Source: a virus. Taken from it: a stretch of DNA of 64,000 nt. Position 1 is the stretch's first letter, and each line of letters starts with the position of its first letter. The notes beneath the pieces are model-generated. The model searched no databases and was not told the DNA's origin. It was given only the letters and a program-made list of their open reading frames with translations. A program made the translations under genes and the position numbers. The stretch is taken from the IMG/VR virus record IMGVR_UViG_3300028394_000044, positions 98,300 to 162,299 of that record, one strand, 5' to 3'. Shown here in pieces: positions 33,057-39,622 of this stretch.

Positions 33057-33114
33057 GTTGTATTTTTGCACCTCTTGAAAAAAGTGTTGACTTTATTGCC
33101 TATTCGTGTATAAT
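33057..33114 (+). promoter_or_regulatory. GTTG-N8-CACC element plus early promoter
   Basis: TTGACT 33087; CGTGTATAAT. Confidence 0.75.
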
Positions 33115-35259: not shown

Positions 35260-36015
35260 ATGGCAAGAAAAACTGCAAACACCAAAATTAGAATTGTTGA
35301 TGAAACTGATATCCAAATTCGTCCTACAAACGGATTAAAAATTAGAATAGATGATCTAAAAACTTTTGATCCTTTGACACAAAATCAAAAAATATTTTTT
35401 GATGCGTATAAGAGGGGAGATTATTTTGTAGCATTACATGGTGTTGCTGGCACAGGTAAAACCTTTTGTGCAGTATACAAAGCATTAGAAGAAGTTTTGG
35501 ATAAAAATAATCCGTTCAAAAAAATTATCATTGTTCGTTCCGCTGTTCAATCCCGTGAAATTGGACATTTGCCTGGTGACGTAACAGAAAAAATGGAGAT
35601 TTATCAACAACCTTATATTCAAATTTGCGATACACTTTTCGGAAGAAAAGATGCATATCAAAGACTTGAAGAGCAAGGTTACATAGAATTTATTTCCACG
35701 TCCTTCATTCGCGGTATGAGTTTTGATGATGCTATCATTATTGTTGATGAAATGCAAAATTTGACATTTGAAGAAATTGATACAGTTATGACTCGTGTAG
35801 GTTATCGTTCTAAAATTCTATGGTGTGGTGATTATCGCCAGACTGACCTGAATAAGAAACGTAATGACATGAGTGGTATCTTGAAATTCTTTGATATTGC
35901 CGAAAGAATGGGAGCATTCACTAAAATTGAATTTACTCCTGATGACATTGTGAGAAGTTCTTTGGTGAGAGATTACATTCTTGCCAAACTTGAATATGAA
36001 GATGAGATTAATTGA
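35260..36015 (+). CDS. phoH: PhoH-like ATPase
   Basis: GVAGTGKT, RGMSF, DEMQN, GDYRQTD and DIVRS. Confidence 0.95.
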   Translation: MARKTANTKIRIVDETDIQIRPTNGLKIRIDDLKTFDPLTQNQKIFFDAYKRGDYFVALHGVAGTGKTFCAVYKALEEVLDKNNPFKKIIIVRSAVQSREIGHLPGDVTEKMEIYQQPYIQICDTLFGRKDAYQRLEEQGYIEFISTSFIRGMSFDDAIIIVDEMQNLTFEEIDTVMTRVGYRSKILWCGDYRQTDLNKKRNDMSGILKFFDIAERMGAFTKIEFTPDDIVRSSLVRDYILAKLEYEDEIN

Positions 36016-36683
36016 TGTTCGAATTCGTAAAACTACCCGAGTTAGATTTCGATATGAAAGCCGTGACTACATACTTGGGTAGAGTTTACGTCACACCTTC
36101 TGGATTTAAATATCCTTCTGTAACAACGGTGCTATCACCATACGGAAAGAAGGCTCTATTTGAATGGAGAGAACGTGTGGGTGCGGAAGAAGCTAATCGT
36201 GTGGCTGCCAAGGCATCACGCCGTGGAACTGCATTGCATAAAGTTTGTGAAAAATACTTATTGAATGAAATGTCTAGCACAAAACTTGCTAGTATGCTTC
36301 CAACAACAAAAGAGCTATTCTACAAAATAAAACCACATATTGATACCAGTATTGGTAAAATTTATTCTCTTGAACAAGCATTGTATTCTGATGGTCTACG
36401 TATTGCTGGTCGTGTGGATTGTATTGCTGAATGGAATGGAAAACTATCCATCATCGACTTTAAATCTTCTACCCGACAAAAAGAAAAAAATGGAATAGCC
36501 AACTATTTTATGCAGTGTACAGCATATGCAGTTATGTTTGAAGAGTTGACTGGTAAGCCTATTGAACAAATTGTGGTTTTAATTGGCACAGAAAACGGAC
36601 CAGGTCAGGTGTTCATTGAGGAAAAGACTAAATATTATGAGGAACTGAAGAGATATATCTCAAACCATTACTCAAAGCTATGA
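36012..36683 (+). CDS. PD-(D/E)XK (Cas4-like) exonuclease
   Basis: YPSVTTVL, RGTALH, GRVD..IIDFKS and QCTAY. Confidence 0.88.
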   Translation: MMFEFVKLPELDFDMKAVTTYLGRVYVTPSGFKYPSVTTVLSPYGKKALFEWRERVGAEEANRVAAKASRRGTALHKVCEKYLLNEMSSTKLASMLPTTKELFYKIKPHIDTSIGKIYSLEQALYSDGLRIAGRVDCIAEWNGKLSIIDFKSSTRQKEKNGIANYFMQCTAYAVMFEELTGKPIEQIVVLIGTENGPGQVFIEEKTKYYEELKRYISNHYSKL

Positions 36684-37462
36684 TAGAAAATAAAAAATAT
36701 CGCTCTATCTTTATTTCTGATGTACACCTTGGAACTAAAGATAGTCAAGCAGAAAAGTTAAATAATTTTCTTAAACACAATTCTTGTGATACTTTGTATC
36801 TTATAGGTGACATTATTGATGCATGGCGCATACAGCAAAATAAATGGCGATGGAAACAAAGTCATACCAATGTTGTCCGTAGAGTATTAGGTCATGCTAA
36901 ACGTGGGACAAAAGTTATATACATAGCAGGCAATCATGATGAGTTTTTGAGACCAATGATACCGTATGGTTTTAGTTTTGGTTTAGTAGAAATACACAAT
37001 CAGATAGAACACATAGGTGCTGACGGTAAACACTATCTCGTTGTGCATGGTGACCTATTTGATGGAATTACAAGACTAGCGCCATGGTTAAGTTTTTTAG
37101 GAGACAAAGCATATGATTTCATTTTATCTCTTAATAGCAAATTCAATTGGGTACGCCATCGCATGGGTTTTGGGTACTTTAGTCTTAGCCAATATCTTAA
37201 AAGAAAAGTAAAAAAAGCAGTAGACTTCATTTTTCATTTTGAAAAAAATTTAGCGGCTTATTGTAAGAAGCGTGGATTTGATGGTGTCATTTGTGGTCAT
37301 ATTCATCATGCTGAAATTAAAGAAATTGATGGAGTTGTTTACATGAATGACGGCGATTGGGTAGAGTCCTGCACAGCATTAGTTGAACATCATGATGGTC
37401 GTTGGGAAATCATAACTTGGACTAAAGATAATGACAAAGACAATATTAATAATAACGGATAA
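36680..37462 (+). CDS. plcP: PlcP-type phospholipase C (LpxH-like metallophosphoesterase)
   Basis: RSIFISDVHLG, GDIIDAW, GNHDEFLR, HGDLFD, LGDKAYD, CGHIH and NDGDWVESCTA. Confidence 0.8.
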   Translation: MIENKKYRSIFISDVHLGTKDSQAEKLNNFLKHNSCDTLYLIGDIIDAWRIQQNKWRWKQSHTNVVRRVLGHAKRGTKVIYIAGNHDEFLRPMIPYGFSFGLVEIHNQIEHIGADGKHYLVVHGDLFDGITRLAPWLSFLGDKAYDFILSLNSKFNWVRHRMGFGYFSLSQYLKRKVKKAVDFIFHFEKNLAAYCKKRGFDGVICGHIHHAEIKEIDGVVYMNDGDWVESCTALVEHHDGRWEIITWTKDNDKDNINNNG

Positions 37463-38450
37463 CTTACCGGATCAAATTAATGGTGTGGTCACAACATATC
37501 AAAATATTGAGGCTTGTGCGATTCTGGATGGTTATAAGTTTGTGGTGTTGCATCCCGGGAGGTTCAGCTACATTGATTGCCCTCGCTACAACGAAGTCAA
37601 GATTGCCTATCCCCGGAACTTGGGCAAGAAGATTAAGGAGATCAATCCGGATTATATCCATATCGCCACAGAAGGTCCTTTGGGTTTGTGGGCTAGAAAG
37701 TATTTGTCATTATATAATATTAGGCACAATACCGCTTATCATACTAAGTTTCCTGAAGGGTTAAAAAAGCTGTTTGGCATTCCAGAATTTATAACTTGGA
37801 AATTTGTTAAGTGGTTTCACAAACATAGTGGAAAAGTTTTAACCACAACTGATAGTATGGTTAAGGAATTACAAGCACACGGTTTTGAAGGTGAAGTTGT
37901 TCCTTGGACACGTGGTGTTGACCGTGAAATTTTTAAACCTGACCTTAGAGAAGACACAACTGCTAAGTATCTTTTATGTGTTTCCCGTGTCAGTAAAGAA
38001 AAAAATCTAGAAGCATTTTTTGAGTTAGACTATCCTGGTTATCAAAAAATTATGGTGGGCGATGGTCCTATGCTTGAAACTTATAAGAAGAAATATCCAG
38101 AAGTAACATTTACAGGATTTAAGACAGGTATAAATTTGGCACGATACTATGCAAATGCAGAAGTATTTGTTTTCCCTAGCCGTTGGGAAACATTTGGACT
38201 TGTTATGATAGAAGCAATGGCTTGTGGAACTCCTGTTGCGGCTTATCCTTGTCAAGGACCAGAAGATGTAATTGAACAAGGTGTAACAGGATTTATGCAT
38301 ACAGATTTAAAGATTGCAGTAACGAATGCGCTAAATATGGATCGACAAAAAGTTTTAGAAGGTAGCAAACGCTGGACTTGGGAAGCCGCATGGCAAATAT
38401 TTAAAAATAATCTTGTCTCTGTCACATCACTGTCACACAATTTATCATAA
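37431..38450 (+). CDS. GT4 glycosyltransferase (Agt-like diacylglycerol glycosyltransferase)
   Basis: ILIITD..QINGVV, HIATEGPLG, AYHTKFPE and ETFGLVMIEAMACG; coupled to plcP. Confidence 0.85.
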   Translation: MTKTILIITDNLPDQINGVVTTYQNIEACAILDGYKFVVLHPGRFSYIDCPRYNEVKIAYPRNLGKKIKEINPDYIHIATEGPLGLWARKYLSLYNIRHNTAYHTKFPEGLKKLFGIPEFITWKFVKWFHKHSGKVLTTTDSMVKELQAHGFEGEVVPWTRGVDREIFKPDLREDTTAKYLLCVSRVSKEKNLEAFFELDYPGYQKIMVGDGPMLETYKKKYPEVTFTGFKTGINLARYYANAEVFVFPSRWETFGLVMIEAMACGTPVAAYPCQGPEDVIEQGVTGFMHTDLKIAVTNALNMDRQKVLEGSKRWTWEAAWQIFKNNLVSVTSLSHNLS

Positions 38451-38493: not shown

Positions 38494-39141
38494 ATGAGAT
38501 TAGAAGACCTAGCCGTAAGATTAGTAGCAGTTGAAGCTAAGTTAGCATCCATAACTGGTACTACAGTTGATACAAACAGTGCCACAAGCATTGAAGAAAT
38601 GGATGCAAGATTGTCGGTTGTTGAGGTGCAAGTTGACCAATTGATTGCTGAGAAAACTGCCAACCATATTGATTCTATTATTATTGCCGCAGCAAATGAT
38701 GCTCCAGTTGACGTTTCCGAAGTTGTTGCTTTGTCCGCAAGTGTTTACAATGAAGAAGCTGCCAGCATCGTTGCTGATGTTGTAATAGCACAAACTGAAG
38801 CAGAAGCAATTGTTAATCCAGAAGTTGCAGATATTGTATCTGCTGCGGTTATGGCAGTTGTTACAGCCGAGCCAGAAGTTGTTTTAGATGCAGTAGCAAT
38901 TACTGCCGCTATTACAGACGCAGTTGCTGAAATGCCAGTGCCATCACCAGAAGTTGCTGAACAAGTAGCTACCGCCATTGCGGAAGTAATTGCTACAGCT
39001 ACAGGTGTTGATACAGTTTCTCCAGAAGTTCAACAACAAGTAGTTGATGCTGTCGCCGCGCCTTCTGATACTGCATTAGATAGTATTGAGAGTCGCCTAG
39101 ATGTTGCTGAGGCGAAGGTTGATTTTTTGTTGGGAAAGTAA
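38494..39141 (+). CDS. Ala/Val-rich acidic protein with repeated RLxxVEA motif
   Basis: AAGGAG RBS; CATAAATA late-like promoter upstream. Confidence 0.7.
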   Translation: MRLEDLAVRLVAVEAKLASITGTTVDTNSATSIEEMDARLSVVEVQVDQLIAEKTANHIDSIIIAAANDAPVDVSEVVALSASVYNEEAASIVADVVIAQTEAEAIVNPEVADIVSAAVMAVVTAEPEVVLDAVAITAAITDAVAEMPVPSPEVAEQVATAIAEVIATATGVDTVSPEVQQQVVDAVAAPSDTALDSIESRLDVAEAKVDFLLGK

Positions 39142-39194: not shown

Positions 39195-39218
39195 AAAGAG
39201 GTCGCAAGACCTCTTTTT
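39195..39218 (+). terminator. Rho-independent terminator
   Basis: AAAGAGGTC-gcaa-GACCTCTTTTT. Confidence 0.85.
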
Positions 39219-39255
39219 CATTGACAAATTGGTCAAATAAATATATAATGTAAGT

Positions 39256-39601
39256 TATTGCTGTATGAAGCGATGTAAAATAAGTTCAAGACGCGGGGGC
39301 AGTGCCCGCCAGGTCCACCATAAAATACATTGGAGAACATAGGCAGACCTATGGGGTCCTGAGCAAAAACTCAGGAGCGTGGTTTATCGTAAAACGCTAG
39401 TGTATTTTATAATGGGCCTGACACAGGATCGATTGGGCAAAGAGTAACAAAGTGGACAGCACGGGAAAGCAGAACCTGTAGGATTGGGGTAACTCGATCA
39501 TAGAAGCAAAAAAAGTAAATGCAAACGACTCACGTTTCTTGATGGTAGCGTAAGCACCATCGGAGTTTTGCAAGTTGAACTTAGCAACAGAATCAACTTG
39601 C
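39256..39601 (+). ncRNA. ssrA: Circularly permuted (two-piece) tmRNA, tag ANDSRFLMVA
   Basis: Acceptor piece ends CAGGTCC-A-CCA at 39320; coding piece starts GGGCCTG at 39414 (G3:U70); resume codon GCA at 39521; promoter at 39221-39249. Confidence 0.88.
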
Positions 39602-39622
39602 TTTTTTAACCTAGGAGAAAAT

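Follow-up and report, generated by a model that had tools for sequence, protein, structure and literature searches.

A run of four phage genes raises the question of whether a lytic T4-like phage carries the means to take phosphorus from the membrane of its host. The window analysed here is a stretch of 64,000 nucleotides (positions 98,300 to 162,299 of IMG/VR record IMGVR_UViG_3300028394_000044). Within it, phoH, a PD-(D/E)XK exonuclease gene, an LpxH-like metallophosphoesterase gene and a GT4 glycosyltransferase gene form four translationally coupled genes on the plus strand (35260-38450). We consider it probable, at about 0.7, that the last two genes, termed plcP and agt, represent the bacterial PlcP-Agt lipid-renovation pathway in a copy carried by the phage, with a predicted release of membrane phosphorus.

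The phoH gene (35260-36015, plus strand) encodes a PhoH-like ATPase (PF02562 PhoH, 153.6 bits; phrog_170, 282.6 bits). It is followed by a Cas4/RecB-like PD-(D/E)XK exonuclease gene (36015-36683, plus strand; PF12705, 38.8 bits; phrog_298, 239 bits), whose likely start is the ATG at 36015, overlapping the phoH stop codon as TGATG, in place of the TTG at 36012 given in the list of open reading frames. The plcP gene (36680-37462, plus strand; P0001) has a start codon overlapping the exonuclease stop (ATGA) and encodes a 260-aa LpxH-like metallophosphoesterase of the PlcP family (Pfam Metallophos, 50.5 bits), a predicted phospholipase C releasing diacylglycerol. It overlaps by 32 nt with agt (37431-38450, plus strand; P0002), which encodes a 339-aa Agt-type GT4 enzyme (Glycos_transf_1, 88.7 bits; Glyco_transf_4, 51.2 bits), a predicted diacylglycerol glycosyltransferase. 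The initial annotation had described the same four overlapping genes, and both their reading frames and the Pfam and PHROG matches agree with it.

The source record is a complete virus genome of 162,299 bp with terminal repeats, and the same genome holds a T4-type gp23 capsid gene (460 bits); plcP and agt are therefore phage-encoded and do not belong to a host flank. The source is an uncultured T4-like lake phage. Its capsid protein was considered as a pointer to the host and set aside, since it has no close cultured relative and shows 62-65% identity to phages of Stenotrophomonas, Pelagibacter, cyanobacteria, Methylophilales and Sinorhizobium alike. The tmRNA, being of alpha type, suggests an alphaproteobacterial host. 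Neither pstS nor a UDP-glucose dehydrogenase gene was found in this phage genome.

Family assignment of the phosphoesterase and the glycosyltransferase

The known bacterial PlcP-Agt set comprises PA3219/PA3218 of P. aeruginosa (PMC8528852), SMc00171 of S. meliloti, the systems of Phaeobacter MED193 and SAR11 HTCC7211 (PB7211_983/PB7211_960; PMC4796936), and GTcp (PMC8231724); of these, our comparisons cover the P. aeruginosa pair, the S. meliloti SMc00171 orthologue and the GTcp residues. The window phosphoesterase shares 56% identity with P. aeruginosa PlcP and 49% with the S. meliloti SMc00171 orthologue, and characterised PlcPs are only 46-47% identical to one another (PMC8528852).

Homologues of this protein are labelled LpxH by JGI, GenBank and PGAP, and its best NCBIfam and PDB sequence matches are to LpxH. 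However, the two LpxH equivalog models score it at 47.4 bits (NF003743, cut-off 134) and 37.1 bits (TIGR01854, cut-off 190.35), some 90-150 bits short of membership. Four genomes hold a real LpxH in addition to a PlcP-like paralogue; there the LpxH model gives 281-339 bits for the former and 28-42 bits for the latter, which the phage gene resembles. A search of four alphaproteobacterial genomes with the LpxH model matched nothing but the PlcP-like gene, at a score far under the cut-off.

The residues follow the same division. The window protein has the calcineurin-like motifs DxH, GD, GNH(D/E), H, GH and GHxH, and its metal-binding residues D14, H16, D44, N85-H86-D87, H123, H207 and H209 are invariant (51-sequence alignment; 52-row PlcP clade). 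At six signature columns it carries H86 (GNHD), G18, D47, D128, C205/I208 and N223-D224, all of PlcP type, whereas all five LpxH sequences have R (GNRD), D/S/C, E, C, H/T and V-L in these columns. Among solved structures, LpxH comes nearest to the predicted fold (TM about 0.56), at 17-23% sequence identity, and the cap region is modelled at low confidence (pLDDT 46-61). With LpxH (PDB 5B49, 5K8K, 6PH9, 8QK2), the source of its database name, the phage enzyme shares a calcineurin-like core into which a helical lipid-binding cap is inserted; PlcP itself is a calcineurin-like phosphoesterase of the Mn type whose helical cap resembles that of LpxH.

The initial annotation had argued from the motifs for PlcP over LpxH, a preference that the signature columns and model scores bear out, and had proposed phylogeny as a check, with a grouping with LpxH as the refuting result. 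The tree did not give that result: true LpxH, including E. coli lpxH, is split off as a separate clade on a very long branch (SH-aLRT 98), and the window protein falls in a 54-row clade with the S. meliloti and P. aeruginosa PlcPs. The phage clade lies beside, not within, the subclade holding these two characterised enzymes, and an AU test did not reject a grouping of LpxH plus the phage clade (p 0.40), so that the phage proteins are possibly the deepest PlcP-like branch. This outcome concerns the root of the PlcP group only and gives no sign that the gene is LpxH. By sequence, we assign the 260-aa enzyme to the PlcP family.

The adjacent GT4 enzyme shares 40% identity with P. aeruginosa Agt1 over 335 aa (E 8e-81). 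Its best match in each of five bacterial genomes is the plcP-adjacent GT4 (232-247 bits, against at most 114 for paralogues), and about 25 cellular loci have a GT4 gene directly after plcP, an order also seen in P. aeruginosa. Thus, the 339-aa enzyme is classed within the plcP-linked Agt group of GT4 as a predicted orthologue, and the initial annotation, which had taken it for the Agt partner, holds on this point. His104, Arg186, Lys191, Thr254, Phe255, Gly256 and Glu261 are kept together with the NGVV motif; mutation of the residues matching these seven abolishes the activity of GTcp (PMC8231724).

Agt and GTcp are further characterised by the motifs GRVAxEKN and FPSxTDTFG, a Gly-rich motif and a His-Asp dyad (PMC8231724). 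The window Agt has SRVSKEKN and FPSRWETFG instead; the Glu that replaces the dyad Asp creates a canonical EX7E, and Trp takes the place of the Thr before it. FPSxWETFG sets phage Agt apart from the cellular enzymes: Trp-Glu occurs in 21 of 22 phage Agt copies, and of 50 rows drawn from bacterial records 48-49 have Thr-Asp, the sole exception being a duplicate of the phage contig L006. Because Trp-Glu replaces Thr-Asp, whose Asp makes up one half of the proposed dyad, the donor or product of phage Agt may differ from that of cellular Agt.

Distribution and putative regulation of the cassette

The phosphoesterase is present on at least 596 IMG/VR contigs, and metagenome proteins 85-92% identical to the window protein number in the thousands. 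A 359-kb metagenome contig is itself an IMG/VR record. Among the 80 closest contigs, the gene after plcP always encodes a glycosyltransferase, a GT4 of the Agt type or a small GT2; most sister phages, unlike the bacterial operon, carry a 237-aa GT2/GT21-like enzyme in place of Agt, and no homologue of this small GT2 was found beside plcP in the cellular loci compared. The phosphoesterase is under strong purifying selection (dN/dS 0.04-0.08; agt gives 0.10-0.19; synonymous sites are close to saturated in these estimates).

Homologues were found in 109 of 301 alphaproteobacterial genomes, a tally that includes an unpublished genome (G245) and bears on no other claim made here, and identity to true cellular homologues tops out at about 60%. 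The 85-92% identities had suggested a very recent transfer from SAR11, which was rejected: the closest "genome" matches come from phage contigs that had been placed in MAGs of unrelated bacteria (labelled Haliscomenobacter, Polynucleobacter, Fischerella and Bacteroidia).

Two cultured T4-like phages also carry a PlcP-clade gene, Mosig EXVC030M (Mosig_00120, 49% identity) and Synechococcus phage S-SRM01 (QPX48289, 36%). Both genes are annotated as LpxH and, unlike the window gene, have no adjacent glycosyltransferase. In the Pelagibacter phage Mosig the gene adjoins pstS. Its host, HTCC1062, lacks plcP (PMC4796936); the Mosig announcement paper does not use the term diacylglucosamine. In the literature we found no paper describing a phage plcP, and virus surveys count the gene under "lpxH, LPS biosynthesis" (PMC9611531, PMC10653327).

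The phage pair resembles the bacterial PlcP-Agt operon in its two protein families, the order plcP-agt, the overlapping frames, the conserved metal-binding residues and, outside the altered motif positions, the UDP-sugar-binding residues. It differs in being fused into a phoH-exonuclease operon of a lytic T4-like phage, and a search ahead of phoH, the exonuclease gene and plcP found no Pho-box-like site here. Many sister phages have the cassette as a unit by itself, preceded by a Pho-box-like site, a point of likeness to the bacterial operon that the present phage does not share; such a repeat precedes plcP in 29 of the 80 related contigs, against about 0.3 expected. When the window was scanned with the E. 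coli Pho-box consensus, matches were no commoner than chance, and only a degenerate 11-bp-phased pattern was informative. Since cellular plcP loci seldom match the strict pattern (three of 62 with one mismatch, while the P. aeruginosa site requires two), the reading of these sites as PhoB targets is drawn from their likeness to the consensus.

The one exact YTGTMAY-N4-YTGTMAY repeat of the 162-kb genome, against 0.07 expected by chance, is the Pho-box-like direct repeat CTGTCAC-ATCA-CTGTCAC at 38419-38436 (plus strand), inside the 3' end of agt and 58 nt before orf215. This gene (38494-39141, plus strand; P0242) encodes an Ala/Val/Glu-rich protein with no Pfam or PHROG match. Its relatives follow plcP-GT2 or plcP-GT4 in 13 loci, and repeats homologous to 38419-38436 precede them, the upstream repeat being conserved. 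It is a tentative candidate member of the plcP-agt system.

The motif ATAAATA, which precedes plcP in relatives, was rejected as a -10 box: in this phage it stands before many structural-region genes with Shine-Dalgarno leaders and is better read as a putative T4-type late promoter. No late promoter was found ahead of the cassette genes in this phage. Lacking a Pho box and a late promoter of its own, the pair probably shows constitutive expression along with phoH and the exonuclease, as early or middle genes.

Proposed role and competing interpretations

During infection, PlcP would cut the phospho-head group off host glycerophospholipids, leaving diacylglycerol in the membrane, and Agt would then move a sugar from a UDP-sugar onto the diacylglycerol. 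The bilayer would be preserved and phosphorus freed, and the cell surface may change as well, as the initial annotation had suggested. The products of PlcP are phospho-alcohols, not free phosphate; their phosphorus would feed phage DNA synthesis after dephosphorylation by some other phosphatase. By a rough estimate, the membrane phospholipid pool of a small host cell holds several phage genomes' worth of phosphorus. The phage can thus probably draw phosphorus from the host membrane, as far as the gene content indicates.

T4-like cyanophages carry the Pho-regulon auxiliary genes pstS, phoA and phoH. The plcP-agt pair is comparable to such cyanophage and pelagiphage genes as a phage-borne answer to phosphate scarcity, with Pho-box-like control in its relatives and the pairing of plcP with pstS in Mosig. 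However, those genes raise uptake from outside, whereas plcP-agt would mobilise phosphorus within the host membrane.

The enzymes might also act as proposed while the benefit lies in a changed cell envelope, glycolipid-rich membranes blocking superinfecting phages or stabilising the dying cell and phosphorus release being a by-product. We regard this as unlikely. It would suit the missing Pho box ahead of the genes in this phage and the phage-specific Trp-Glu variant of Agt, which suggests a product of its own; glycosyltransferases of pelagimyophages have been interpreted as surface modifiers (PMC7029224), and lipid renovation in bacteria reportedly changes phage susceptibility (PMC9804370, PMC9938194). 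Against it stand the Pho-box-like sites before the cassette in sister phages, the neighbouring pstS in Mosig, the coupling to phoH here and the fact that bacteria deploy the homologous pathway in response to phosphate starvation (PMC4796936, PMC8528852).

It is less probable still that the substrates are not lipids; in that case the phosphoesterase would process nucleic acids or nucleotides in concert with phoH and the exonuclease, and LPS, protein or DNA would be decorated by the GT4. The operon shared with phoH and a PD-(D/E)XK nuclease would fit such a role, as would weak PHROG matches to SbcD-like and DNA-repair phosphoesterases and a 30-bit match to the Pfam "GT4-conflict" family. Yet in 76 of the 80 related contigs the phosphoesterase adjoins neither phoH nor the exonuclease, while the glycosyltransferase is always adjacent. 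Moreover, sequence, signature columns and fold place the phosphoesterase on the lipid-directed LpxH/PlcP branch, not with Mre11/SbcD, and the GT4 is orthologous to plcP-linked lipid glycosyltransferases. That the enzyme is a true LpxH, a UDP-2,3-diacylglucosamine diphosphatase boosting or altering host lipid A synthesis, is very improbable in view of the model scores, signature columns and paralogues given above, despite its database name and nearest solved fold.

We therefore retain the PlcP-Agt reading. A broader picture can be drawn tentatively, in which a whole lineage of T4-like phages from lakes and oceans would carry a mobile cassette, often apparently under Pho control, that combines PlcP with an interchangeable glycosyltransferase (the phage-only Trp-Glu GT4 or the small GT2/GT21-like enzyme). 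It would turn host membrane phospholipid into phage DNA precursors, even in hosts without plcP, and might yield a glycolipid foreign to the host.

As the genes are short and assays exist, the idea is directly testable. The PlcP assignment would mend a systematic annotation error, the database label being that of the lipid A gene lpxH. If the proposed role is true, phages of phosphorus-poor lakes and oceans would reprogram their hosts in a different way, by tapping phosphorus bound in the host rather than in the water, and viruses might account for part of the non-phosphorus glycolipids seen in field measurements.

The phoH-linked gene run and its metallophosphoesterase

The window forms the 3'-terminal 64 kb of an IMG/VR virus record that is complete (162,299 bp, with direct terminal repeats) and encodes a T4-type gp23 capsid protein (460 bits). 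The closest cultured capsids, those of Stenotrophomonas, Pelagibacter, cyanobacterial, Methylophilales and Sinorhizobium myophages, are just 62–65% identical, so the phage belongs to an uncultured T4-like lineage. The overlapping phoH, exonuclease, metallophosphoesterase and GT4 genes described in the initial annotation are present at 35260–38450 as four plus-strand genes without gaps. The run opens with phoH (35260–36015), whose stop overlaps the start of a PD-(D/E)XK exonuclease gene (ATG at 36015), followed through an ATGA overlap by a calcineurin-like metallophosphoesterase gene (plcP, encoding P0001; 36680–37462) and, with a 32-nt overlap, by a GT4 glycosyltransferase gene (agt, encoding P0002; 37431–38450).

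Relatives of P0001 are named LpxH in databases, and its top NCBIfam and PDB sequence matches also belong to this lipid A-pathway paralogue. We rate this best match as far too weak, since the scores against the LpxH models (47.4 and 37.1 bits) lie far below the curated cut-offs (134 and 190); solved LpxH chains match with E-values of about 5e-5. In a maximum-likelihood tree of 60 rows, comprising P0001 and phage, bacterial and LpxH sequences, E. coli LpxH and four other true LpxH proteins (281–339 bits on the LpxH model) were separated by a very long branch (SH-aLRT 98). The opposite side holds P0001 together with seven copies from phages, the two characterised PlcPs and another 44 homologues, mostly alphaproteobacterial, one of which is on a phage-looking contig. 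Six alignment columns fully split the two clades, and P0001 has the PlcP state in all six, as expected from the claim that its motifs fit PlcP better than LpxH; for example, GNHD occurs in 52/52 PlcP-clade rows versus GNRD in 5/5 LpxH rows. In four gammaproteobacterial genomes a true LpxH coexists with a PlcP-like paralogue, the latter being the look-alike of the phage gene, and in four alphaproteobacterial genomes the P0001 homologue was the sole match in a search with the LpxH model (41–55 bits).

The P. aeruginosa PlcP reference, PA3219, was taken as the gene between azoR3 and cyaB, where PA3218 (Agt1) comes next with an overlapping start. The S. meliloti reference, the SMc00171 orthologue, adjoins genes for a LuxR-type regulator and an acyl-homoserine-lactone synthase, which we take to be sinR and sinI. 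The PLSDB record CP090106.1 (3.72 Mb), whose title is 'S. meliloti plasmid pSymB', has an apparently chromosomal sinR-sinI-SMc00171 neighbourhood, and its replicon label looks wrong. P0001 is 56% identical to PA3219 and 49% to the SMc00171 orthologue; the gene roles of PA3219 and PA3218 follow a study in which the characterised PlcPs are only 46–47% identical to each other (PMC8528852). The phage clade sits beside the subclade of these two PlcPs, not within it, and its placement as the deepest PlcP-like branch was not rejected by the AU test (p 0.40), a result that bears on the root of the PlcP-like family and not on LpxH identity. The nearest full-length structures to the AlphaFold model of P0001 (mean pLDDT 80) are those of LpxH (TM about 0.56, 17–23% identity). 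The predicted metal-binding core carries a long helical insertion of low confidence (residues 124–197) at what we presume to be the site of the LpxH lipid-holding cap, and the model fits a lipid-directed paralogue of LpxH.

The adjacent glycosyltransferase

Homologues of P0002 (37–42% identity) are encoded directly 3' of a PlcP homologue in about 25 cellular loci, including those of Roseomonas, Kordiimonas, Emcibacter, Azospirillum, Acetobacteraceae and Sphingomonadales, and this gene order is the previously described 'type 2' layout (PMC4796936). Among the GT4 paralogues of five whole genomes rich in such enzymes, the top match to P0002 was always the plcP neighbour (232–247 bits, full length), the runner-up reaching at most 114 bits. 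P0002 is also 40% identical (E 8e-81) to P. aeruginosa Agt1, which produces monoglucosyl-diacylglycerol when expressed in E. coli (PMC8528852). Synteny, best matches and Agt1 identity support the proposed plcP-adjacent Agt at the family level. Residues whose mutation abolishes the activity of SAR11 GTcp (PMC8231724) are kept in P0002, one systematic difference apart. Cellular Agt proteins have FPSxTDTFG, with the Asp half of a proposed His-Asp dyad, whereas 21 of 22 phage copies have FPSxWETFG, a change that brings back the EX7E motif canonical for GT4 enzymes. Given this replacement of Thr-Asp by Trp-Glu, the phage Agt may differ from its cellular counterparts in sugar donor or product.

Distribution and predicted regulation of the cassette

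The phosphoesterase gene was found on at least 596 contigs of the viral collection, and the comparisons below use the 80 closest contigs among the matches listed. Their proteins are 86–94% identical despite near-saturated synonymous sites, and dN/dS is low (0.04–0.08 for plcP, 0.10–0.19 for agt), which indicates old, strong purifying selection rather than recent spread. The flanks are highly variable, yet the gene after plcP nearly always encodes a glycosyltransferase, either a GT4 (20–22 loci) or a 237-aa GT2 (56–58 loci, e.g., L096:6755–7468; others among L093–L172, L004, L005 and L008). The unit thus acts as PlcP plus a swappable glycosyltransferase, which argues for diacylglycerol glycosylation as its selected function. 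The 237-aa protein matches Pfam GT2 (70 bits) and passes the GT21 cut-off (24 versus 21.7 bits); no homologue adjoins plcP in the cellular loci compared, and the gene is absent from the window phage genome. In two contigs sharing neighbours with the window (L100 and L106), the plcP-GT2 cassette and a chitinase-like gene lie between phoH and the exonuclease gene, whereas the window plcP-agt pair follows the latter; insertions seem to have occurred repeatedly at the phoH-exonuclease junction. Genes encoding proteins 71–89% identical to P0001 also occur in MAGs assigned to Haliscomenobacter (L004, L006), Polynucleobacter (L005), Fischerella (L007) and Bacteroidia (L009). These MAGs span four unrelated phyla, and their plcP genes adjoin the phage GT2 or GT4; the contigs appear to be of phage origin and to have been binned with bacterial sequences, in which case the GTDB species representatives carry phage contamination at these contigs.

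In 29 of the 80 relatives, an 11-bp-phased direct repeat (YTGTMAY-N4-YTGTMAY, e.g., TTGTCACATATTTGTCAC and CTGTAATCATACTGTAAT) is located 10–11 nt 5' of an ATAAATA motif, which lies 6–9 nt 5' of the plcP ATG; about 0.3 such loci are expected by chance from the background of the window genome. The repeat, often found directly after a terminator, resembles the proteobacterial Pho box (CTGTCAT-N4-CTGTCAT) and may be bound by PhoB. ATAAATA precedes many structural-region genes of the window phage and was therefore assigned as its late-promoter motif. Several genes start just 4–9 nt after ATAAATA without a Shine-Dalgarno sequence (whole-genome positions 45088, 148045, 154549 and 159800, and plcP starts of relatives), so this phage group may produce some late transcripts with no leader or almost none.

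The window plcP-agt pair lacks both a Pho box and a late promoter of its own, and sigma-70-like promoters are located 5' of it at 33087 and 33911; the pair is thus probably expressed constitutively along with phoH, as early or middle genes. The sole exact repeat copy in the window phage genome (38419–38436; 0.07 expected) lies after agt and before orf215, followed by TATCAT (38419–38448 in all). Homologous repeats in differing versions precede orf215 relatives in five loci (L093, L096, L111, L133 and L147), so orf215 (38494–39141) may be phosphate-regulated. Its Ala/Val/Glu-rich 215-aa product has similar coiled-coil-like ends and no family match.

Predicted host and proposed phosphorus supply

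A permuted (two-piece) tmRNA is encoded on the plus strand at 39217–39602, with Rfam scores of 92.6 bits for tmRNA_permuted and 73.7 bits for alpha_tmRNA (gathering score 50), both above gathering; ARAGORN made no call of a permuted tmRNA there. A perfect TTGACA-17-TATAAT is located at 39221–39249. The alpha-type tmRNA and the proteobacterial-type Pho boxes of relatives point to an alphaproteobacterial lake host, for which freshwater SAR11 (LD12) is no more than a candidate. Mosig, a Pelagibacter phage in culture, has a PlcP-clade gene divergent from pstS, and their shared promoter region (L001:4857–5010) contains 11-bp-phased TTTAACA/CTTAACA repeats, with AATAAATA located 6 nt 5' of the plcP ATG. 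The lake phages share this layout but have another heptamer; that of Mosig is nearer the cyanobacterial type of Pho box. The Mosig host, HTCC1062, lacks plcP (PMC4796936), so a phage could bring the predicted activity to a host without it.

In the literature covered, which was that outside subscription journals, no paper was found that links plcP to auxiliary genes encoded by phages or other viruses. Phage glycosyltransferases were interpreted as LPS modifiers in a pelagimyophage survey (PMC7029224), and 'lpxH' was filed under LPS biosynthesis in two virome studies (PMC9611531, PMC10653327). The plcP-agt reading is supported at the gene-family level, from which we infer, on good grounds, the enzymology and a phosphorus-mining role. 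PlcP would release phospho-alcohols, so a phosphatase would still be needed to free phosphate; neither pstS nor a UDP-glucose dehydrogenase gene was found in the window phage genome. One such genome contains 324,598 phosphates, and by a rough estimate from assumed areas the two membranes of a small cell hold a few million phospholipids, equal to the phosphate of several phage genomes. This membrane pool would matter at a myophage burst size of about 9 (PMC7029224). Set against the published literature, the pathway is familiar from bacteria and the viral setting is new. Features particular to the latter are the exchangeable glycosyltransferase, the Trp-Glu form of Agt and, in the window genome, fusion to the phoH operon.
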